In this document: positions 34,031 through 49,400 of the stretch, piece by piece
Layout: each line of letters starts with the position of its first letter
Position numbering within the stretch: position 1 is the first letter of the stretch
Source: Amphiscolops sp. MND2022
Taxonomy: Eukaryota
Direction: 5' to 3'
Assembly (NCBI GenBank): GCA_964187785.1
Contig: OZ076409.1
Coordinates: 66,032,001 to 66,096,000, forward strand
Length of the DNA: 64,000 nucleotides
Notes under the pieces: model-generated
Told to the model about the DNA's origin: nothing
What the model saw: the letters and a program-made list of their open reading frames with translations, nothing else
Database searches by the model: none
Position numbers and translations under genes: made by a program

Positions 34031-35140
34031 CTAGTTCATAGCCGACACAAAGTCGCTTAGGTATGTAGGAGGTTTCATGTTCCTAGCCGAGCGTCGCAAG
34101 GTGGCAGCGGGAGAGTCCGGGCTGAATTGAGATTCCTTTATTGGTTCCACAGATTTACGTGGTTCACCTTCGGTTCTGATGTCAGGACCCGATGTTCTGA
34201 TGTCTACATCGGTCTCCTTGTCTTTGTATTGACCTGCTGGTTGTGAGGTCGTTCCTTCATTGTCAATATCCGGCGGTCGTCGAGAGAGGTCACTTGTAGA
34301 AACAGTGTCAGCTCGCCCATCGCCAAAGGAGACTCGTGCAAGGTGAGGGGAGATGACTTCGGATATCTGTACAGGCACAACGGGAGCTTGGTCTTTCGCC
34401 CTTACAAATTTCCGGAGGTACGCGGGAGCGTCTGCTCTGAGCCAAGGTGCGCTACTGGAGGGACGGATCAGCGGCTCGCCGCGTTTGAAACAGAAGAAGC
34501 GATCATGAGGGCTCTCCTTGGTTACGGTATTGATAAGTGTCCGAATCGACAAGAGCGCTGATGGTAGGACACTTTCCCAGTCAGTTAGTGGGCGGTTTGT
34601 GGAGTGTAGCAGGCACTGAACTGCTTTCCACACAATTCCGTTGTAGCGCTCGTTTTGGCCATTGCCCTGGGGGTGGTAGGGCGTAGTTTTGGAGGTCGCA
34701 ACTCTATTTTGGCGGCAGAAGTTTTGGAATTCCGATGAGACGAACTGTGTGCCCCGGTCAGAGTGAATGAACCCAGGTGTTCCGAAGATGGCAAAAAGTG
34801 TTGAAAGACACTTGATGACGCTACTAGACGTGATGTTCTGGAGAGGGAAGGCGAAGGGAAACCTGCTAAACTCATCCACCACTGTGAGAAGCTATTGGTT
34901 TTTGGTTCTAGTCATTAGTTTGGGGCCAACAATGTCGATTGATAGTCGCTCCCAAGGTTTGGAGGATCGAATAAGATCGCTGCCGGGGGGTCGCAAAAAG
35001 CGCGGTTTCCATAGAACGCACGTTTTGCAGTTTTCGGTAACCTTTTTGCCTCATCTAAAGATATTGGAACTTTGTGTCTTTGAATGTATTCGTACAGTCG
35101 GGTCACTCCTGGATGTGCAAGTGTTTCGTGTAGGGTTTTA
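34031..35140 (-). pseudogene. Integrase (frameshift near 35045, stop near 34895)
   Basis: HETLAH...CKTC zinc finger across the frameshift; SIDIVGP, VVDEFSRF, IHSDRGTQF, GNGQNER. Confidence 0.9.
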
Positions 35141-36714
35141 CAGTTGGGCTGTAGGGACGCTAATCGAGACAGGGCGTCAGCTGACACGTTCTGACAACCT
35201 CTCTGGTAGCCTATCTCGAAGTTGTATTCCGAAAGTTCCAGGCGCCAGCGAATCAGTTTGTCATTCTTCACTCTGGAAGAGTTGGGTACAAATATGAAGG
35301 AGAGGGCCTTTTGATCGGTGCGAACTAGAACCCGTGACGTCCGTAACAGGTCTGAGAAACGGAGGAAGCCTTCCAAGATAGCCATAGCTTCCCGTTCAAC
35401 CACCGAGTACGCCATTTCGCTATGTTTAAGAGTTCTCGAGAAGAAACCGACAGGTTTGTCGTTTTGAGTGAGTGTCACTCCGATACCGGTCCCGGATGCA
35501 TCGGTTTGGAGAACGAGAGGCTCGTTTGCCCGGGGCAGCCAAAGTACGGCAGAGGTAACTTCTTTCTTGAGAGTTGCGATAGCCAGCCGAGAAGCTTGAT
35601 TGAGCGGAAAGGCCAGTTGTTTCTGTGTTGCGAGCAGGGTAGCAACCTTATTTGAGTAGTCTGCAATCCACTTTGCGTTGTATGCAAAGAACCCAAGAAG
35701 GCGTTTCAACTGTGACGAGTTTTCGGGGATAGGGAAATCCATCAGTGTCTTGATTTGGCTCGGATCGGGGCGTTTAGAGCCAGCTCCCACGATGTGACCG
35801 AGCATTGGTACTGTCTTACAGCCAAAAACGCACTTAGCTTTGTTCAGTGTCAGACCCTCAATCTCGGCCGCTTTCAGGAAGTTCTTCAGATTTTCTTGGT
35901 GTTCCTCCTCGGATCTGCCTCCGATGATCACATCGTCAAGATATGGGTGCGTTCGCTTCAGGTTGTGCCGGCGTACAAAGGCTGTCATTTCTCGTTGAAA
36001 TGCGGCTACAGCGTTCGTGACGCCAAAGGGAAGTCTTGTGAACTCAAAAAGTCGTCCGTTCACTTCAAACGCGGTGAATGACATGTCCTTGCGATGGAGG
36101 GGGATTTGATGATACGCAGACTTCAAGTCGATTTTCGAAAAAGTAGTGTTCTTGGCTGCTTGGTCAAGCAGGTCTTGCATATTTGGAAAGGGGAAGGCGT
36201 CTTTGGACGTATGACGATTAATTGTCTGAGAATAGTCGATCACCATCTGTGGCTTGGGTCCGTCCCTAACGACAAAGGCTTGAGCCCGCCAGGGAGACGT
36301 GGAAACTTTGATTATGCCTTCAGCGAGCATTCGGTTAACTTCTGACTCCATGAAGGCGACGTCTTGTGGTTTGTGACGACGCGATTTTGTAGCAATCAGT
36401 TTGGCACTATAAACTGTTTTGGAAAGTATGGTCGGAGGGGCAATTTTCATCGCCGGGAACTCCAATTCCTTGAGCCCGGCAGATATAACCGTCTCTGGTC
36501 GATCACCGCCGAATTCCAGTCTCACAGAGTGATGTTGTCGGAGAACGTCAAGCCCGAAATTAACATCCGCAACGAGGGGTTTTGCGACAGTGAAGAGAAC
36601 TTGGTAGGTCTTTTGGTTTACCTCAATTTTAGCTTTAGCGGTGCCTGACGTAATCAGAGAGTCGCCATTTGCCAAGGCAGTGACCTTCGCTTCGCGCGGA
36701 CATTCAGGTCTCAT
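34915..36714 (-). CDS. pol: protease C-half, reverse transcriptase, RNase H
   Basis: SPWRAQAFVV, KIDLKSAYHQI, LPFGVTNA, YLDD, LQTDASG, EREAMA, RTDQKAL, NVSADALSR. Disconnected from gag by two TGA codons and a frameshift at ~36690-36730. Confidence 0.9.
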   Translation of the reverse strand: MRPECPREAKVTALANGDSLITSGTAKAKIEVNQKTYQVLFTVAKPLVADVNFGLDVLRQHHSVRLEFGGDRPETVISAGLKELEFPAMKIAPPTILSKTVYSAKLIATKSRRHKPQDVAFMESEVNRMLAEGIIKVSTSPWRAQAFVVRDGPKPQMVIDYSQTINRHTSKDAFPFPNMQDLLDQAAKNTTFSKIDLKSAYHQIPLHRKDMSFTAFEVNGRLFEFTRLPFGVTNAVAAFQREMTAFVRRHNLKRTHPYLDDVIIGGRSEEEHQENLKNFLKAAEIEGLTLNKAKCVFGCKTVPMLGHIVGAGSKRPDPSQIKTLMDFPIPENSSQLKRLLGFFAYNAKWIADYSNKVATLLATQKQLAFPLNQASRLAIATLKKEVTSAVLWLPRANEPLVLQTDASGTGIGVTLTQNDKPVGFFSRTLKHSEMAYSVVEREAMAILEGFLRFSDLLRTSRVLVRTDQKALSFIFVPNSSRVKNDKLIRWRLELSEYNFEIGYQRGCQNVSADALSRLASLQPNCKTLHETLAHPGVTRLYEYIQRHKVPISLDEAKRLPKTAKRAFYGNRAFCDPPAAILFDPPNLGSDYQSTLLAPN

Positions 36715-36725
36715 TTGGCAGCTGT

Positions 36726-37643
36726 TCAGGCGCTGATAAAGGAGCCCGTGGATCCGGTATCAATCATTGCTTGAACTTGTTCATTTCTTCCGGCAAATTT
36801 GAGGCTGACATTCAGAGTGGCACGGGATATGCCAGTACTGCACAAAACGGCGGCAGTCTCGGGTTCATCATCAGATGAATGTTGTAAGACAGCAGCGGTC
36901 GATCTACATTCCGAAGCCCAGTGTCCTGCTTTCGAGCATTTGTGACAAGTGTCCTTTTTGGCTGGGCACTTTGAGCGTGGATGCTGTTTTAGACCGCAGA
37001 ACTGACAGCGTGGACGAGGCTTGTTCGAAACCTGTTGGGCAGCGGAGTTGCCGGGCCGATCAGGTTGCCGTCGAGTTGTCTGGGAGAACGGCTTGGTTGC
37101 TGCTACAGTTGAAGATTCGGCACTTCTGAAAGATTTGGAAAAGTCACTGGATAGTTCGATAGCACAAGCAAGCGATATGCAGCTGTCAATGTCGGCCTTG
37201 GAGTCTTCCAGTTCCAATAGTTTTGCCCGAATGTCGTCAGACCTGAGACCTGATATTAAAGCGTCTCGTACTAGATAGTCTTTATGTGCTTGGACGGTCA
37301 AGCTGGTGCATTCGCAGTCTTCAACAAGACGTTTCAGCCTTCCTGAAAATTGTACGATAGATTCGTCGTCCTTTTGACTGGCACTGAGCTTTTGATGACG
37401 GGCAAAGAGAACACTCGTGGGCTTCAGAAACTGTCTGTCCAATGTTCTCAGGGCGTCTGCAAACGTTGCAGAGCTTTCGAGGAGAGTGAAATAGTCGGAG
37501 CTGACAAATGTACGAAGAAAAACTAATTTTTCAGCATCTTCGGTTGTGCCATTGATGCGTAAGCCGTCCTCGAAACATTTCTTCCACCATTTCCATTTCT
37601 CGGGAGAAGGATTTGATGGCAAGTCGGGTAGTTTGAACTTCAT
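36726..37643 (-). CDS. gag with two CCHC knuckles plus protease active site
   Basis: CQFCGLKQHPRSKC and CHKCSKAGHWASEC; AMIDTGSTGSFIS. Confidence 0.92.
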   Translation of the reverse strand: MKFKLPDLPSNPSPEKWKWWKKCFEDGLRINGTTEDAEKLVFLRTFVSSDYFTLLESSATFADALRTLDRQFLKPTSVLFARHQKLSASQKDDESIVQFSGRLKRLVEDCECTSLTVQAHKDYLVRDALISGLRSDDIRAKLLELEDSKADIDSCISLACAIELSSDFSKSFRSAESSTVAATKPFSQTTRRQPDRPGNSAAQQVSNKPRPRCQFCGLKQHPRSKCPAKKDTCHKCSKAGHWASECRSTAAVLQHSSDDEPETAAVLCSTGISRATLNVSLKFAGRNEQVQAMIDTGSTGSFISA

Positions 37644-37679
37644 GGGCGTTAGAAGAGGGAATACAGCGCATAGACAATT

Positions 37680-37805
37680 GCTACGAGGAACTTAAGAAAG
37701 TACCGTTGTAGCAGAATCAGGCGATAGCTACGAGGAACTTAAGGAAGTACCGTAGTAGCGGAATGGTCGATAGCTACGAGGAACTTAAAGAAGTACCGTA
37801 GTAGC
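37680..37805 (-). repeat. Three tandem 33-bp hairpin-forming repeats between ORF0 and gag
   Basis: GCTACGAGGAACTTAARRAAGTACCGTWGTAGC at 37680-37712, 37727-37759 and 37773-37805; linkers of 14 and 13 bp. Confidence 0.9.
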
Positions 37806-39222: not shown

Positions 39223-40753
39223 GTAAAAAAATTTTAGGTTTTGCGCGATTTAAGTTTTGATTTTTCAAGCAACAGGAACGATTTCTTTGAATTCGTTTTC
39301 TACGTCTTCCAAAAAAAACGTGCATATATCACTGTACACTTGAAACATACATAGCGTTGTTTAACATGATGGAATTCAAAATTTTGATGTTCATACTATT
39401 TTGGAATTGATACAGAACGTTTCAATGAAAACTATTCAATTAAGCCTTTCCGTTGAAGACAATATTTTGAGGCCGAAGGAAACCAATTGATTTAATTGAA
39501 TGAGCAGTCATTGTGATTAGCGCAAAAGGTTTACTCTCAACAGTATCTGTTTTCTGTCTTATTGTTCACTGCAAAGTGTGTAACTGCGTCATTTTGCCCA
39601 AACGAAAACAGGCACCTTTCCATTTTGTAAAACATCACCAAACGCTTTGGATCGGTGGTGACAGTGGATGTAAATTCCGTTTTTGCTCAGACGGAACGAA
39701 CGTAGAAACGAAAACAATATATCCAAGGTTGGTGCTACACTTATGCTCCTATTGTCTTTCAATTTGATACTTTCAATTTGACCTCGAAATGGAGCATCTG
39801 TATTACTTGACTTTTTGTCATGCATTCTGTCCAAAGAATGATAGCCAAACAAAAACATCAAGCTCTTGAGATTCCAAAAGGTGAAGGATTCTTTTCGAAT
39901 ATCCAGAGTTCTTAATAAAGCATTCGTTTCAAATGTCACGCAGTGCACCATCTCTTTTAAAGCACTGTCCTTTTCCATGTGATTTCAAACAGGCAAAAAG
40001 AACGCATGAACCACGTTCTCCAGTTTCCCCGCAAAAAAGCGATTTCTTTGGAGTTACTAATTCATTTCACCGGTTGAAAACTTGGGTGCTTGAAATGGCC
40101 GCTTTCAAAGAGTGATCACAAGGGAAATCTGAAGGCAGGTCCTGTCAATAAATATTATGTTGCTCTGCAAGCGAATTGACTGGAGTTGTCAAAGACTGTT
40201 CTCACAGACACCTTCTATCAGAAAAAGTTTGTCCTAACGTTCGAAGTGCCAACAGAACCAACCTTTTTGAATAACGAAAAACCTATTTCCCTTCATGTCA
40301 TTCTATTCTGTGTTTAGCTACTATTTTAGGAAACTGGAAACGTTTGACTTGACCAACGTTTCGGATTGTCGCACCAGTATTGATACCAAATTGGGCGAAG
40401 AGAAGTCGTAGACTTGATGATTCTTTTCTGTCCCGTTGATTTAATCTGTCGATTTTACAAAGTGTTTAGAGAGTAAATTGCATTTCCCCTGAATGTGAAA
40501 AAATGTGACTTTGACAACTTTTGAAGAAATAAATTTGATAGGGTCACCTTGTCTGTGAGATGAGCTGTCACGAAAATATCAATTTCTGTTTTCAAATTTT
40601 CATTGACAACTAATCTAACTTTGTTCGACTATCTTCGATGATGCAACGATCAACTATTAATCTGTACTCGTGAGAAAAAACATCTGCCAGCCCATAAACA
40701 GTTGGAAAAAGTTTTGGAATCAATGTAAACTAAATCAAGAATAAAAATAAAAA

Positions 40754-40792
40754 GGAAAACGTTTTCGATGTAACAACATCATCATCAGTCTG
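40754..40792 (-). ncRNA. Minimal hammerhead-ribozyme-like motif at the Penelope 3' end
   Basis: Minus strand: CUGAUGA-U-GAUGU(UGUU)ACAUC-GAAA-ACGU-UUUC, i.e. conserved core, stem II and palindromic stem III. Stem I is weak. Confidence 0.6.
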
Positions 40793-40929
40793 AAAATAAA
40801 AATATATCAGTAATAAACAGCTTCCATGACGAGCTGTGAGATTATAAAATAATTTAAATAAAATAAAACAAAGTCCTTTGAACAGATGATTAATCACCAC
40901 AATATTATTCAATTTCTGCATCGAAGCTC

Positions 40930-42790
40930 TCACAACTTGACTGTAAGGGGGCGGCTGGTGTACTCCTCTTTCCCATTAATCTCAGGTCGTAACATAGCAA
41001 TATAAAGTGACTCCAACGTAACAAGAGTAGAAACATTGTAATGTTTATCAATAATTTTCAAATCGTAGGATTGCAACGAACCACAAGTGCGTAGATGCTG
41101 TCCAATTGGTGCCTTCTCCTTAAGATGCTCATTTACACGGGTTTTCAAATGCCTGTACGTCTGCCCGACATAGCAAGCATTACAGCTTGAACATGTAAAT
41201 TGGTAAATAACCCTGCTGCTGAGCTCCTTTGGAGTAGCTGGCTTCAAACTGGGCAATGCTGTCTTTAATTTTCTTGTCGTAAAAATAACATTCACGGGAG
41301 CAGCTTTTCTGATCTTCTCGCCCAATTTATCAGACAGTTTACCTCGATATTGCAAAATCAATACTTTTCGTTCATTTTTGTCTTTTTTGTTTTTGGTTTC
41401 CGAGGGTTCGGCTGATGGTACTTTCTCCCTCAGAATCTTCTCCAAAGTGTGTCGAACTATTGGGTTAAAGAAGGATGGAGGGTACTGATTAGCCTCCCAG
41501 ATTTCCTTGGCTCGGGTCAATCCGTCGTGAAATTTCTGCCAAGTTGAGCAAGCATTGTGAATGCGGTGCACCATACCTTGAATTGTGTTCCTTTTGTATC
41601 TCTGTGGAGCACACGCATGGTAAGACAAGCAAAGCCCTGTATCTGTAGGTTTTTGGTACCAGCCAGAAGTAAGCGGGCCATCTCTTCTCTCAATGACCAT
41701 ATCTAGAAAAGGTAATTGGGAGTCTGATTCTTTCTCAACAGTAAACTTCAGATTGGGATGTAAGCTATTTATTCTCCCGAGTAGGTCTTCGATTTCTTCT
41801 TCCTTAATTGAGCGCAAAATATCGTCCATGTACCTGTGGAATAATCTAGATGGTTCTTCCTGCCTTTGGGAGAGTTCCACTCTACACCCACAATGCCAAG
41901 TTCCCCTCGGAATCGATCTAATATATTTCACTGACCATCCAAGGCATGCTCTGTGGTACCAAAAAGCACATCGGTTGCATTGCACAGAATACCCTCTAGC
42001 GGTGACTCTTTTCCCACATTTCCCGCACGGGTCCTTTTCGCTCACTGAACATGTTTCTTCTTTTGATTTTTTTTCTTCCAGGCAGTCAATAGGGCCACCA
42101 AGAAATGGCTCAAAGGATTTCAACTATATGTTCGCTAGGAAAACAGCGAGCTTGGAACCGATCGCTAAACCATCTACCTGTTCAAACCACTCTTGGCCCA
42201 CTTGAAATTTCACATTTTTCACATCCACTTTCATAAGTTCCACAAAAATGCTCTTTTCGATTTGCTGTGGGCTATTGCTGTATATTTTGTCCGCTGCTAA
42301 TGCTATAGCCTCATCCACGGTGACATTTGTATACAGGCTAACAACATCCAGAGAAATCAGCACCTCGTCTTCTAAGTGCACTGTGTTGATGTCCTCTTTT
42401 ATTTTCTGTGTCGATGTCTCTATCCCTGCGCCTTCTACATCTTCTATAAGCTCAGCCAGGGCTGATGTCATAGCAACTCCCTGGTAGCGATAACACTGGT
42501 CTGAGTGGTTTTCCCTTTTTGTGTATCTTCGCTAGCCCATAGAGTTTGGCAGGCTGAGCTCCGCAGCTTCTAGAACGGTCGTAGAATTTTTGATCGATTT
42601 TGCCGTCCTTGAGAAATGCATTTAGTTTTCCATTTAATTCTCTTTCCGCTTTCAGTAAAATATCGTGTCCAATCCCTTGTAGTTTTTTGAACTGTGGCCC
42701 GTCCATGAGTTTCGTCAATTTTTCGTTGTAAAGTTCATCACTCATGACACAGAAACCCAAACCTTTATCAAAAGGCACAGTTATTGGGTT
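40930..42790 (-). mobile_element. Penelope-like element (RT + GIY-YIG endonuclease), 5'-truncated, with one stop and one frameshift
   Basis: PFDKG, LYGLAKIHK..PLRPV, SLDVVSLYTNV, QVDGLAIGS, RYMDD, LPFLD, YQKPTDTG; GIY-YIG VIYQFTCSSCNACYVGQT..RVNEH..LESLYI..IN. Confidence 0.95.
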
Positions 42791-42982
42791 ATCTCGTAGA
42801 AAATTATTTCTCTACCCCCTGTTACTCAACTAAAGCCTGTACGTGGCCAACTAAAGAAACGTTCGACCCCTTCAACTGACTTGTCCTTTCGACGACGCGC
42901 GCCAAATACAATCTACCGGCGCCACCACATGCTGGATGTCTCATGTACCACGGGTGTGTGTCTTCTCCCCCCATAATGATAC

Positions 42983-43900
42983 GGTATGGAACCAGCGTGT
43001 AGAATCTAGTTTGTATAAAAGTGAGGCCCAGTTTGTTGAATTTTTTCTACAAACTGGATTCTACAAAATGGGGTCAGGGACATTTCGTCACCAGCCATTT
43101 GGGCGACAATATGGCGTCGATCACATGGGCGACAAAAGTGTCGACCAAATGGGTTGATCAAATTGATCAATTAACTGATATGTTTGAAGAGGTTAGCATA
43201 TTTGTTGTATGGCTCGGTCGCTTCGCTCCCTTCGCGAAGTAGCAACATTGAGGCATGGCCATTTGGCACGTCACCCAGCTTCTCTCCTGCATTTAGGGCA
43301 CTAGGGGTATGTGAACATATTTGGCCATTTAGTCTACGGGACATTTGGGCATTATTGTCGGCGAAATGGGTTGAAATTTTTGTCGCCCAAATGGCTGGTG
43401 ACGAAACGTCCCTGCCCCACAAAGTTAGGTCCAGTCTGTAGAATACCAGTTTGTAGAATTCTGGAATTGAACCAAAACGATAAGACCAATAATGTAGGAA
43501 CGATGCAAAGCATAGAACGTGCCTCGGATATGTCCTCATTTCCGCTGGTGCCCCGCGGCCCCTGGGGGCCGCTTATGTTCCCATCTTGCTAAGCGAGGTC
43601 GAACAGGAGCAAAGACCTAGTGGGAACGGAGATCGCGAAGCGATCGTAGTGGGAGCTGGTATTTGCGACGGTGAGGGTGAGCGTGCATACACCGGATATG
43701 TCCCACATTTCAGTTTTTAGATCTTATTCTTTTAGATCTTAGGCGGTGGAGCTCTCAAGATCTCGTGTGAAGGATGTCCAGTTTGTAGAATATAATGATC
43801 CAGTTTGTAGAATTCAATGATCCAGTTTGTAGGAAAAAAAATTCTACAAACTGGACCACATAGGACCGGTTTGTAGAATTCTACAAACTGGACCTAATTC
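42983..43900. mobile_element. Composite TIR-type insertion rich in CCAGTTTGTAGAAT motifs (second copy 44844-45761)
   Basis: Interrupts the repeat seen intact at 39138-39222, with ATGATAC on both sides; inverted pair TTAGGTCCAGTCTGTAGAAT (43425) / ATTCTACAAACTGGACCTAA (43897). Confidence 0.6.
43071..43418. mobile_element. MITE with ~39-bp TIRs (second copy 44932-45279)
   Basis: GGGTCAGGGACATTTCGTCACCAGCCATTTGGGCGACAA / TTGTCGCCCAAATGGCTGGTGACGAAACGTCCCTGCCCC; degenerate ACAAA(A/G)T flanks. Confidence 0.8.
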
Positions 43901-44581
43901 GATGATACACATGGCACTTGATTGATGACGGAGATCCATTATATCTGATAGAGGAAAAAAACTCATGTATCAGTTTAATTTACAAATAGGAACCACGGAT
44001 TTTTACAATAAGCCTGAATTATTTTTATTATTATGATTTCGAAACAGGGCCAGGGATGTCCTCCCAGTTTTTAGCTTCATATTTTCCACCTGGCAGGTTT
44101 CTGAGTTTTGATGTTATATGGTATCAAAGTAGTTCCATAAATAACACAGAAGTCTGCTTTTCAATCCATTGGCACGTTCAAATTCAATGTTTCTGGGTAA
44201 ATGATAGTTTCAGATTGTCTGTAGTTGTTCAGGCATCAACTTTTTGCCAAACAAATAGCCATTGGCTATCTTAATATTGTTTATCGATTCACTTCTCAAT
44301 GAAGGTTTAGTATTATGTACCAGCTGTTTGAACGCAACATCCGTGGCAATGCAATGATATGTTTACTCGTGCCCAAGAAAATTGATCTTGCAAAGTAGAT
44401 CTATGTAGTTGAATATTTCGTAGTGCTAATCGTTGAAACTCGAATTGTTTTGCTATTGGCCTACTCTAAAATTTGTTCATACTTCAGATAGAAATGATGA
44501 CGATATAATAAATGCACATGAACATGGACCACAGATCTTTGACTATGGCGGAGAAAGATAGATAACCCACGTTGAAAGCAA

Positions 44582-44739
44582 ATGGCCACTGAAAAACAAG
44601 AGTGTCAGAAGGCGCATGACGTGACCAAAGTTGTCGTTCGATGTATTCCAGCAACACTAACTGAACAAGAACTTCTTGACTTGTTCACTGAATGGACTGA
44701 TCATATCGAGTCTTATTACCTGTTGAAAAATGTTGCGAG
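44582..44739 (+). other. UPF3: Duplicate copy of UPF3 coding exon 1 with intact ATG and GT donor
   Basis: MATEKQECQKAHDVTKVVVRCIPATLTEQELL...; differs from 46443-46600 by one R/C codon; donor AG|GTAAAT at 44740. Confidence 0.8.
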
Positions 44740-46442
44740 GTAAATAAAATCTGGTTCGATTATATAATCAAATTTTTTGGCGCCACCACATGCTGGATGT
44801 CTCATGTACCACGGGTGTGTGTCTTCTCCCCCCATAATGATACGGTATGGAACCAGCGTGTAGAATCTAGTTTGTATAAAAGTGAGGCCCAGTTTGTTGA
44901 ATTTTTTCTACAAACTGGATTCTACAAAATGGGGTCAGGGACATTTCGTCACCAGCCATTTGGGCGACAATATGGCGTCGATCACATGGGCGACAAAAGT
45001 GTCGACCAAATGGGTTGATCAAATTGATCAATTAACTGATATGTTTGAAGAGGTTAGCATATTTGTTGTATGGCTCGGTCGCTTCGCTCCCTTCGCGAAG
45101 TAGCAACATTGAGGCATGGCCATTTGGCACGTCACCCAGCTTCTCTCCTGCATTTAGGGCACTAGGGGTATGTGAACATATTTGGCCATTTAGTCTACGG
45201 GACATTTGGGCATTATTGTCGGCGAAATGGGTTGAAATTTTTGTCGCCCAAATGGCTGGTGACGAAACGTCCCTGCCCCACAAAGTTAGGTCCAGTCTGT
45301 AGAATACCAGTTTGTAGAATTCTGGAATTGAACCAAAACGATAAGACCAATAATGTAGGAACGATGCAAAGCATAGAACGTGCCTCGGATATGTCCTCAT
45401 TTCCGCTGGTGCCCCGCGGCCCCTGGGGGCCGCTTATGTTCCCATCTTGCTAAGCGAGGTCGAACAGGAGCAAAGACCTAGTGGGAACGGAGATCGCGAA
45501 GCGATCGTAGTGGGAGCTGGTATTTGCGACGGTGAGGGTGAGCGTGCATACACCGGATATGCCCCACATTTCAGTTTTTAGATCTTATTCTTTTAGATCT
45601 TAGGCGGTGGAGCTCTCAAGATCTCGTGTGAAGGATGTCCAGTTTGTAGAATATAATGATCCAGTTTGTAGAATTCAATGATCCAGTTTGTAGGAAAAAA
45701 AATTCTACAAACTGGACCACATAGGACCGGTTTGTAGAATTCTACAAACTGGACCTAATTCGATGATACACATGGCACTTGATTGATGACGGAGATCCAT
45801 TATATCTGATAGAGGAAAAAAACTCATGTATCAGTTTAATTTACAAATAGGAACCACGGATTTTTACAATAAGCCTGAATTATTTTTATTATTATGATTT
45901 CGACACAGGGCCAGGGTTGTCCTCCCAGTTTTTAGCTTCATATTTTCCACCTGGCAGGTTTCTGAGTTTTGATGTTATATGGTATCAAAGTAGTTCCATA
46001 AATAACACAGAAGTCTGCTTTTCAATCCATTGGCACGTTCAAATTCAATGTTTCTGGGTAAATGATAGTTTCAGATTGTCTGTAGTTGTTCAGGCATCAA
46101 CTTTTTGCCAAACAAATAGCCATTGGCTATCTTAATATTGTTTATCGATTCACTTCTCAATGAAGGTTTAGTATTATGTACCAGCTGTTTGAACGCAACA
46201 TCCGTGGCAATGCAATGATATGTTTACTCGTGCCCAAGAAAATTGATCTTGCAAAGTAGATCTATGTAGTTGAATATTTCGTAGTGCTAATCGTTGAAAC
46301 TCGAATTGTTTTGCTATTGGCCTACTCTAAAATTTGTTCATACTTCAGATAGAAATGATGACGATATAATAAATGCACATGAACATGGACCACAGATCTT
46401 TGACTATGGCGGAGAAAGATAGATAACCCACGTTGAAAGCAA

Positions 46443-49400
46443 ATGGCCACTGAAAAACAAGAGCGTCAGAAGGCGCATGACGTGACCAAAGTTGTCGTTC
46501 GATGTATTCCAGCAACACTAACTGAACAAGAACTTCTTGACTTGTTCACTGAATGGACTGATCATATCGAGTCTTATTACCTGTTGAAAAATGTTGCGAG
46601 GTAAATAAAATCTGGTTCGATTATATAATCAAATTTTTTGGAGGACCCTTCAAAATGTTTTTGTAATAGCATGGATCAGTCTGAAATGTGTCGCTTCTAC
46701 ATGGGATTCAAAGATCTGCAGAAAGCTCTCGCTTTTCATGGAAACTTTGACGGCTATATCTTGAATGATACCAGACTGGTTGTGGAGTTGGCGCCTTACC
46801 CGAGACTTCCAAAAGCATCTCGTTGGAAGGTAGATGCTAAACAGGGTAGCATTGACCAAGGTAATTTTTAATCTTCGATACAAAACATCCGCCTTGATTT
46901 TAACAAAACTTGATCTGGCCATAATAATTTCAAGACGCAGAATATCTGGCATATGTGGAAACATACGAGTCTGAAAGTCCCTCGAAACAGAGTGCTCAGT
47001 CAAATCAAGAGCAACTGCTGATAGAGATGGAGAAACGAAAAGAAGCTAGAGCTTCCAATCAAAATGAAGTCACTCCTCTCATTCAGTCCATCATTGACAG
47101 CCGCACTGTAAGATACACATTTGTTTTTAATTGGTTATCCGAGGCCATGATGAATAAATATGTATTTTCAAACAAAGTATGAATATGCACATATAAAAAA
47201 CGTTATGGATATGTATTTTTGTGCGTTCAAAAATGAAATTGAGCTTCAACTTTGTTGATTGCACTGGTTTCTGTTTTTTTTTCGTTCATTCAAGTCATTT
47301 GAGTTCATTTTGGGTTATGTTTTCCGTTATCGGAGTTGAGTTATTTCATCATTCTTGCACATAACAGAAAAAAAAACGCGTAATTATTGAAGCTTTTTGA
47401 AAACCTCAAGTGTAATAACAGCCGTAAAGCTGGCGTTCCATTTGAGAAAAATCCCATTGTGCCAAAAAATCGAAGGTTTACTCAACTAAAAACCAAAGGT
47501 AAGACTTTTTTGTAATATGGGCACATAAAGTATTATCAACCTACCGGCCTATGGTTTCGGCGCGCTTAGTCCTTTTTGAGTAACAGTAAAGTGAAAAAAT
47601 AATAATAATGACAATATAAGACCCTTTGGTGAGAAAAATTCGAAAGAAATCTCGAAGTGAGGCCCTTTGATATTTTGTAATTTTAAGGGCGGACCCTTTT
47701 TATCAATTTGGCCTTATTTAAACCTTTGCCGAAAAGTAGAACTTTTGTAGAATTTGTTGTCAGTTAAATCGATTGAAATGAAATAGAAAAAGTGCAAAGC
47801 CACTATAATTGCCGGTCTGTCTTTCATACAGCGCCGACTAAAATTGAATGCAGAAAATTAGAGGAGTTGGGAGTGCTTTGACAAAATCTTGAGCATTCTT
47901 TGTAGAGCTGCACTGCAACTTGTGTTCTTGATAATTGATTTTTTTCTTTTTTGGTCTCTTTTAAATCCTTCTTTATATTCAATAAATTTTAAAAACATAT
48001 AGACCGTACGCATCGAAACGTGTAATGGTCTACGTATGTATGGTCCAGGTTACAGAGGGAGCTTGTCAAAAAGGTGTGGAATGTGTCGAACAAAACACCG
48101 GATCGCAAAGTAGATGCTCGTCTATATAACAGCGTATTTAAATCGAGTTGCTCGTTATGAAATTATTGAGAGCTTGAGAGCCTCCCCTCTTCAACGATTG
48201 CGCTCATAGAGGACTCGACCTGGATGACCGTGTGTTTAAGAGATCTACATCCTCTAATAAACAGAATTGAACTCCTCGAAAGTGCAAAACTAACCTTCGT
48301 CCTGATAAATCCTACGACATCAGCGTATGGCTCGGAAGTTGTGTCGCTGAGCTTGACCGTGAGTCTTGTGATGATTTTCGATGCGGACGGTCCGGTTCCT
48401 CCTGTAGTCGCGAAGACGAGTGAGCTGGAAGAGCTCTTTTCGATATTCATGATACGTTGCTAGTATATGCGTTTCCTGCTTGAATTTGTTTCGGACAGGA
48501 GTTAGCGAGCGGTTGAAGATTGACATCGAAGGTTTTTGAATAGAAAAGTCTGTTTGCTTTGATGTCTAATCTAGCTTCATCTTCAGTGCTCGTTGATTTA
48601 TTATCGAAGATCTCGCCTTCTAACGGCTGAAGTTTCGGTTCGATTTCAACATCGTTGCAGACGTCTCCTAGGAGCTTAGCGAATGTGTCGCGAATTTCAT
48701 TGTGCCGCATTTGGTTATATCCGCCTGTTGCACAGTGTAAAGCCTGTGATATAACAAAAGGTTCACCGCATGCACACAAAATACTGAGATTTTTCGCTTC
48801 CCTTCCATATCGGAGAGCTAAGCCGTCTCTGAATCGATTTGTTTAGGGCGAGGCCATATTTCTGCAGAGAAAGCGCGTTGAACCAACTAGAGGCTCCTTT
48901 TACTGAGGACAGCTTAACTCGCCCTCAGTTACGACCTCTTCCAGTTTTTCAATTTTCGTGATGTTTTGTAATTTGTCTCTTGAGTTCGCGAGTACTGTGA
49001 ATTTTCCGCGGCTAGGGACTCCACTCCGTTCAGACATTCACTCAAGGCGACCGATCGTGAATAGTCCCCGGTGCGGCCATCGGATGAGAGGATGTTGAGA
49101 CCATTTTTTAGATGGAGTGAGAAGAGCAAACGCTGCTCTTCTGTGTGAGCGGTCTTTCCAGTGAGCGCAGTAGCAGTTTTTCCGAGATGGTCTTTTCTGT
49201 TTCTTTAGTAAAGGCTCCATGTCGGGTGTGGTTTGGGAGAGAAACGAGAATTTGTTCTGTATACCTTGTCTAAAGGCGTGGTATACCTTTTGCGGCGATT
49301 GTCGGGCGTGAGTGGCGAGCTTTTAGACTTGGTGCTGGTATTCAGTGGTGACGTTTTCTGAATTCGTTGCACGCTGCTTCGGAGCGTATTGTGGAACCTA

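Follow-up and report, generated by a model that had tools for sequence, protein, structure and literature searches.

Why does a PHD finger lie inside the reverse transcriptase (RT) of a Penelope-like element (PLE), and what might it do there? The window, the whole 64,000-nucleotide stretch of DNA that was analysed, carries one copy of such an element at 40703..42810 on the minus strand, and its PHD insert and RT motifs all lie on that strand. The first-pass annotation had proposed that a chromatin-reading module sits between RT motif B and the catalytic RYMDD, and that it may steer target-primed insertion. The sequence comparisons described below indicate that the PHD insertion is real, conserved and clade-defining. 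A role in histone reading and in the steering of insertion may follow from its conserved surface and is discussed after the distribution and predicted structure of the finger.

The element copy and its PHD insert

The window copy is 5'-truncated at ~42810, and its 3' end at 40703 is fixed in the family. It is 95–98% identical to copies on C13, C4, C12 and C496, with the 3' end common to all of them; the copy on C13 reaches further 5' and has the upstream pseudo-LTR. At least five further copies of this family span part of the finger. A DKG motif lies upstream of the RT core (VPFDKGLGF, 42761..42769, in frame 42452-42811), and BLAST traces against the L083 and L005 copies reveal a frameshift at 42467..42468, where 8 bases are missing. 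The same 8-base gap at 42467/8 is seen against a contig of run X1. Motif A of the RT (SLDVVSLY, 42331..42354) was located by six-frame translation and has a weak RVT_1 match. Motif B (42124..42171, with GLAIGS at 42171-42154) ends in a premature TAG at 42126-42124, a codon that is open in other copies. Past this TAG, the open frame runs through the finger to motif C (RYMDD, 41821..41835), in which the catalytic aspartates are intact, and then to a C-terminal GIY-YIG endonuclease whose Cys and His residues are of the CCHH type (40930..41211; ORF stop at 40932-40930). The endonuclease scores 25.2 bits against Pfam PF01541 (cut-off 22.6) and shares its ORF with the insert. The linker between RT and endonuclease lacks Cys in the window copy. 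With its 5' truncation, frameshift and premature stop, this copy is dead.

The 3' pseudo-LTR occupies 40703..40929, and its segment 40703-40912 is repeated upstream and inverted in the C13 copy. It contains a hammerhead-like core (~40755-40790) in which CTGATGA and GAAA are separated by a hairpin. This arrangement is found at the same place in four families, with hairpin sequences that differ between families. No hammerhead match was returned by Rfam, and the folding z-score of the core is 0.01. The original assignment of the element as Penelope-like is borne out by the telomerase-like RT of an intact relative (P0002), the GIY-YIG domain in the same ORF, the pseudo-LTRs and the 5' truncation. 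Elsewhere in the window, a 1861-base unit is duplicated head to tail at 42918-46641 with 99.8% identity, beginning ~110 bases past the 5' break of the element; it represents either a recent duplication or an assembly artefact. Frames for a Ty3/gypsy-type gag (zinc knuckle) and pol (RT, RNase H) are located at 34915-37691, also on the minus strand.

The insert consists of an N-terminal linker of variable length and sequence (42028..42099), the finger proper (41884..42027) and a C-terminal linker (41854..41883). The span from motif B to motif C is 113 amino acids in the window copy, and exactly 33 amino acids in 83 of 110 proteins with both motifs and in the PHD-less families of this genome. The in-frame insert is therefore 80 amino acids long, in agreement with the first reading of ~80. 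The zinc ligands fall in the blocks CGKC (42027-42016), CNRC (41979-41968), HRAC (41955-41944) and WHCGC (41898-41884), with spacings exactly as originally described (CGKC-x12-CNRC-x4-H-x2-C-x15-WHCGC), giving a C4HC3 pattern that ends in CxC. The Pfam search suggested at that time gives a PF00628 score of 26.7 bits for the insert alone (E 5.6e-6; cut-off 24), which it passes; the score is 22.6 bits, below the cut-off, within the 397-aa ORF and 27.5 bits in P0002. RING and C1 domains were considered as the identity of the insert and rejected on their lower scores. Many of the PHD-bearing protein matches are marked by a newer Pfam family, PF27108.

Across 16 aligned families the eight zinc-ligand positions, with CxC as a variant of the last pair, are invariant or nearly so, and a chance pattern is rejected on that basis. 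A single-copy accident was likewise rejected, as the insert recurs across many copies and families. In the same 16 families the finger shows 42% identity and a pN/pS of 0.49, and the flanking RT motifs show 47–55% identity and a pN/pS of 0.36–0.44. Values for the N-terminal linker (10%, 0.89) and the C-terminal linker (11%, 0.90) are quite different; all of these ratios are rough because pS is saturated. The comparison indicates that purifying selection acts on the finger and not on the linkers. The charged linkers remarked upon in the first reading are real in the window family, but at 10–11% identity they are not conserved across families.

Distribution and origin of the finger

A protein search of the 1.07-Gb genome, in which 150 of 532 candidates were scored, identified at least 114 distinct PHD stretches adjoining motif B and/or motif C (loci L001-L174). 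These fall into at least 30 groups at 80% nucleotide identity, at least 21 of them with two or more copies. Stop-free frames containing RT, PHD and endonuclease are present in three families (895 aa; 905 and 890 aa; 853 aa). PHD-less sister families with intact ORFs of 817–818 aa exist in the same genome. On one 39-kb contig (C1820, locus L048), 14 PHD-bearing units of a family other than that of the window copy are arranged head to tail with a period of ~2743 bases, several of them with 853-aa open frames.

Relatives are also found in other genomes. In the protein collection, 16 of 109 matches with both motifs have a B-C span of 95–121 aa. Two of these 16 match this genome at 99–100%, while the other 14 show only 42–74% identity to the best fetched locus. 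A direct search with one of the proteins, P0007, found a best match in this genome of only 49%, and it is therefore likely to come from another species. The finger of P0004 and its cluster ends in C-x2-H rather than C-x-C or C-x2-C. The only named record, XP_063722202.1 from the acoel Symsagittifera roscoffensis, belongs to the 90% cluster of the PHD-bearing P0078; it ends at motif B, so the presence of the finger in this species is deduced from its cluster mates. Look-ups of other clusters yielded no additional named host. A profile search of 1.84 billion representatives recovered motif B followed by a PHD in 67 of the best 150, many of which are decayed fragments. Two RT+PHD clusters in the ESM Atlas (65 and 215 members, score 0.75) are a lead only, their Cnidaria label depending on one member in each. 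The possibility raised at the outset that the insert is unique to this dead copy can be set aside, given its recurrence in this genome, the intact ORFs and these relatives.

Phylogenies of the RT, computed with the insert removed, place the PHD-bearing sequences together. All 27 PHD rows lie on one side of a branch in a quick 81-row tree (SH-aLRT 100), as do all 25 in a careful 49-row tree (97/90), both rooted on distant, unlabelled PLE RTs. The trees left out 11 proteins without a B-C match, 4 short proteins, one fused protein and near-duplicates, together with about half (81-row tree) or most (49-row tree) of the close PHD-less rows. One clade of PHD-bearing RTs makes a single gain the simplest reading, and on this evidence the ancestor of the lineage likely acquired the finger once, between motifs B and C. 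No PHD-less row appears among the 25–27 rows of the clade in either tree, although losses could be missed because the searches favoured PHD-bearing copies. The last pair is CxC in 18 of 26 PLE fingers; in the 49-row tree this form occurs in families branching near the base of the clade, and CxxC in a nested group.

The best non-PLE match follows a 2A-like peptide, as in LINEs, for 19 of the 26 PLE fingers, and is another repeat of this genome for the remaining 7. None of 14 comparison PHDs of this genome is the best match to any of the 26. These sets are biased: it was the PLE profile that retrieved the LINE-type rows, and the comparison PHDs were the top Pfam scorers. The comparison set has no Pygo-like host gene, and so a host donor of the finger may have been missed. 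The finger may have been captured from a LINE-type PHD module; a 54-column PHD tree gave no order for PLE and LINE fingers, and transfer may have run in either direction. That the closest PHDs found are in LINEs suggests module swapping between retrotransposons.

Several loci of this genome carry such PHDs in LINE contexts. At L049 (1-4125, minus strand), L050, L147, L150, L158 and L160, single-ORF APE LINEs have a PHD that ends in WHCG(C) and comes directly after a 2A-like motif, with a 1375-aa open frame containing APE and RT at L049. At L123 (1654-1845, minus strand), as well as L120, L135 and L164, a CxC-ended PHD follows in frame after an apparent LINE ORF2 C-terminus, which is presumably RTE-like. 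The best non-PLE match to the window finger is of this L123 type. In this genome, retrotransposon proteins carry the CxC module at three separate positions.

Predicted structure and possible function

The AlphaFold model of P0002 (875 aa, 136-row alignment) has a mean pLDDT of 90.5 and a pTM of 0.84. Its finger is modelled at a pLDDT of 76–88 and its linkers at 47–58, with residues 478–487, equivalent to the N-terminal linker, below 50 and the C-terminal block 541–550 at 58. The beta-hairpin of motif C (E558-561/E564-570) reaches 91–96. The best Foldseek row for this model is the TERT structure 3du5, and the top nine VIA rows are all telomerases (Z 14.4–15.5), the best of which (Z 15.5) aligns over residues 155–709, flanking the insert on either side (rmsd 5.7, 385 aligned). 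Whether the palm closes around a looped-out domain, a check proposed with the first reading, is thus answered by a prediction on an intact relative: the palm of an intact telomerase-like RT is predicted to close around the finger, looped out on flexible linkers. The window finger is itself predicted to fold as a PHD, with a mean pLDDT of 81.8 and the helix before the last Cys pair kept. Every Foldseek row listed for it is a PHD-containing chain (probability 1.00), the best being Pygo (TM 0.62, rmsd 2.4, E 5.5e-3); Foldseek is the sole source of this structural match.

The B-C loop of RT probably faces away from the catalytic cleft. A PHD-less PLE protein, P0040, has an unrelated 25-aa insert in the same loop (span 58), which suggests that the loop is generally permissive. 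On the P0002 model, a telomerase-like RT can accommodate an entire folded domain in its B-C loop. The RVT_1 match of P0002 is above the cut-off and reaches only up to motif B. The insert splits the RT profile match in this way, and such elements can therefore escape annotation.

Pygo is also the best solved profile match to the PLE fingers (E 8e-10). The available part of one study describes the Pygopus PHD as an H3K4me2/3 reader in which mutation of W366, V350 and A356 abolishes or nearly abolishes H3K4me binding (PMC2726290). Equivalents of W366 and V350 are kept in all 24 parsed PLE fingers (of 26; two were unparsable), and the A356 equivalent is small (S/A/G) in 23 of the 24. The walls of the pocket are poorly kept, Y341 being aromatic in 5 of 24 fingers and D352 being Asp in 1 of 24; the window family has neither, with D and A at the respective positions. 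At the D352 position, 10 of 24 have Arg or Lys. The net charge is +8 for the window finger and at least +4 for 13 of the 26, with a median of +3.5 as opposed to -2 for the 14 other PHDs of the genome; four of the 26 have a charge of -2 or lower, and one family is at -7. Typical H3 readers bind via a negatively charged site, according to the text available for PMC10124903. The pocket Trp is absent from all 14 other PHDs sampled in this genome, which indicates that the PHD fold does not need it. It is, however, present in 24 of 26 LINE-type PHDs, and so could have come with the donor module. Prediction of a complex between the window finger, the unmodified H3 tail of this genome (1-30) and two zinc ions gave a score of 0.01, uninformative either way.

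Inspection of 3' flanks by eye found no shared target motif or microsatellite, and the GC and CpG of the flanks do not differ between 36 PHD-bearing and 7 PHD-less copies (p 0.37 and 0.74). CpG is not depleted in the window tiles and element flanks, where observed/expected is 0.95–1.0; a ratio near 1 makes this comparison a poor proxy. The PHD-bearing copies at L063 (1-4700) and L025 abut long ACT/TAC trinucleotide arrays, and the other flanks seen are without such a preference.

The explanation that best accommodates these observations, and to which an even chance is assigned, is that the finger gained by the ancestor acts as a tethered reader of histone tails. Suspended by flexible linkers from a polymerase that remains intact, as the predicted fold implies, the finger would bind the tail of histone H3, most plausibly K4-methylated. 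Such binding may keep the RT-endonuclease attached to chromatin while target-primed insertion proceeds, and the expected effect would be on chromatin access or dwell time rather than on sequence choice. Chromatin reading and the steering of insertion, as proposed in the first reading, may both apply, but this is weakened by a pocket that matches only half of that of Pygo, by the basic charge of the finger and by flanks free of bias. The intact PHD-less sister families imply that the finger is not needed for transposition as such.

Other roles for the finger must be set against this one. A basic clamp on nucleosomal or target DNA, or on element RNA, could aid priming or processivity with no reading of histone marks. 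The position of the finger inside the polymerase itself would suit this role, as would the +8 charge of the window family, the high median and the Arg or Lys at the D352 site. However, charge varies across families, to the point of being negative in some, while the Trp and Val of the pocket are invariant, and long free linkers suit a tether better than a fixed clamp; the clamp is judged improbable. The same low probability is given to binding of a non-histone protein, whether a second copy of the element protein or a host factor involved in entry into the nucleus, remodelling of chromatin or evasion of silencing. Pygo, the closest solved PHD, contacts a protein partner through a second face (PMC2726290), the model retains the helix that precedes the last Cys pair, and the CxC module recurs in three protein contexts. 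However, the invariant surface residues fall on the histone pocket in the Pygo alignment, and no result here points to any partner.

The finger might instead be a tolerated passenger in a permissive loop, retained only because the RT would suffer from an insert that does not fold. The zinc ligands and core would be conserved in this case too, and both the intact PHD-less sisters and the lack of a difference between flanks are compatible with it. It is nonetheless rather improbable, as the invariant Trp is dispensable for the fold, and as no loss has been seen among the 25–27 rows of the clade even though linker lengths change freely. By far the least probable reading, and one that is largely refuted, takes the insert for an intron or nested fragment peculiar to dead copies and outside the active protein. 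None of five RNA contigs (from the only run found, share 0.05) spans the insert, and the window copy is dead, as this reading would have it. However, the insert is in frame and stop-free in the 16 aligned families and in full-length ORFs, and conservation is higher at its first (0.54) and second (0.60) codon positions than at the third (0.36). The contrast in pN/pS between finger and linkers also argues against an intron.

The finding bears on how Penelope-like elements choose their insertion sites. The tethered reader of H3 tails can be extended to a broader but doubtful proposal, in which an animal Penelope-like clade carries a working histone-mark reader in the palm of its telomerase-like RT and chooses chromatin for insertion. 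Chromoviruses carry chromodomains, and the finger would be their counterpart among target-primed elements. In the same proposal, Penelope and LINE elements would exchange the PHD module, the acquisition of which would have helped the clade to radiate into dozens of families. Intact PHD-bearing and PHD-less sister families in one genome form a natural controlled pair for the role of a PHD in a retrotransposon. An in vitro system for Penelope-like elements is called for in the available text of PMC8557442.

Relation to known elements and PHD fingers

By its architecture, compared with the published description as far as it is available (PMC8557442), the window element appears to be Penelope/Poseidon-like. 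It shares with that clade an RT followed by a C-terminal GIY-YIG endonuclease with CCHH, the absence of a CX2-5CxxC linker zinc finger and the presence of the DKG motif, as well as pseudo-LTRs, 5' truncation and tandem and inverted copies. Intact relatives have GPKH at the likely position of the N-terminal GxKF/Y, a part that the window copy lacks. The 80-aa PHD insert in the palm sets this lineage apart. Assignment to the Neptune, Nematis or Hydra clades was rejected, as the window linker has no Cys finger and the DKG and CCHH-type residues are present; the Hydra clade is described as having DKT and no CCHH in the portion of the same source available (PMC8557442). Assignment to the Naiad/Chlamys clade was rejected because an N-terminal endonuclease would be expected there, and that of the window element is C-terminal.

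The closest PHDs found for the PLE fingers are those of the APE-type LINEs, in which a 2A-like peptide, PHD, APE and RT form one ORF (Odon et al. 2013, PMC3708506, in the part available), and the fingers of L049 and L150 end in the same WHCGC. However, that finger is N-terminal to the endonuclease and outside the RT, in another class of retrotransposon. Pygopus is the nearest solved PHD by both profile and fold, and its W366, V350 and small residue at A356 have their equivalents in the PLE fingers. The PLE fingers differ from it in mostly lacking Y341 and D352, in a mostly basic surface, in the CxC form of the last pair in the majority, and in having no known partner such as BCL9.

The nearest precedent for the insertion itself is found in the Chlamys PLEs of green algae, of which five families have PHD insertions, placed either between RT2a and RT3(A) or within the endonuclease, according to the accessible text of Craig et al. 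2021 (PMC8557442). Like the window lineage, these Penelope-like elements carry the PHD within their one ORF, and some of the families have it within the RT. However, the Chlamys endonuclease as described there is N-terminal and lacks CCHH, and the elements possess an insertion-in-fingers domain. In the window lineage the endonuclease is C-terminal and bears CCHH, the PHD sits between RT4(B) and RT5(C) and characterizes an entire clade, and the one cluster member with a species name comes from an animal. The two gains were probably independent. The first-pass annotation knew of no standard Penelope architecture with a PHD in the RT palm. The Chlamys insertions are an earlier example of a PHD within the RT of a Penelope-like element, and that statement holds in a narrower form: neither a PHD insertion at the B-C site nor an animal case was found in the literature searched, which lay outside most subscription journals, Repbase and Dfam. 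What this lineage adds to the PHD already known from Penelope-like RTs is the B-C insertion site, in an animal lineage with a C-terminal endonuclease.
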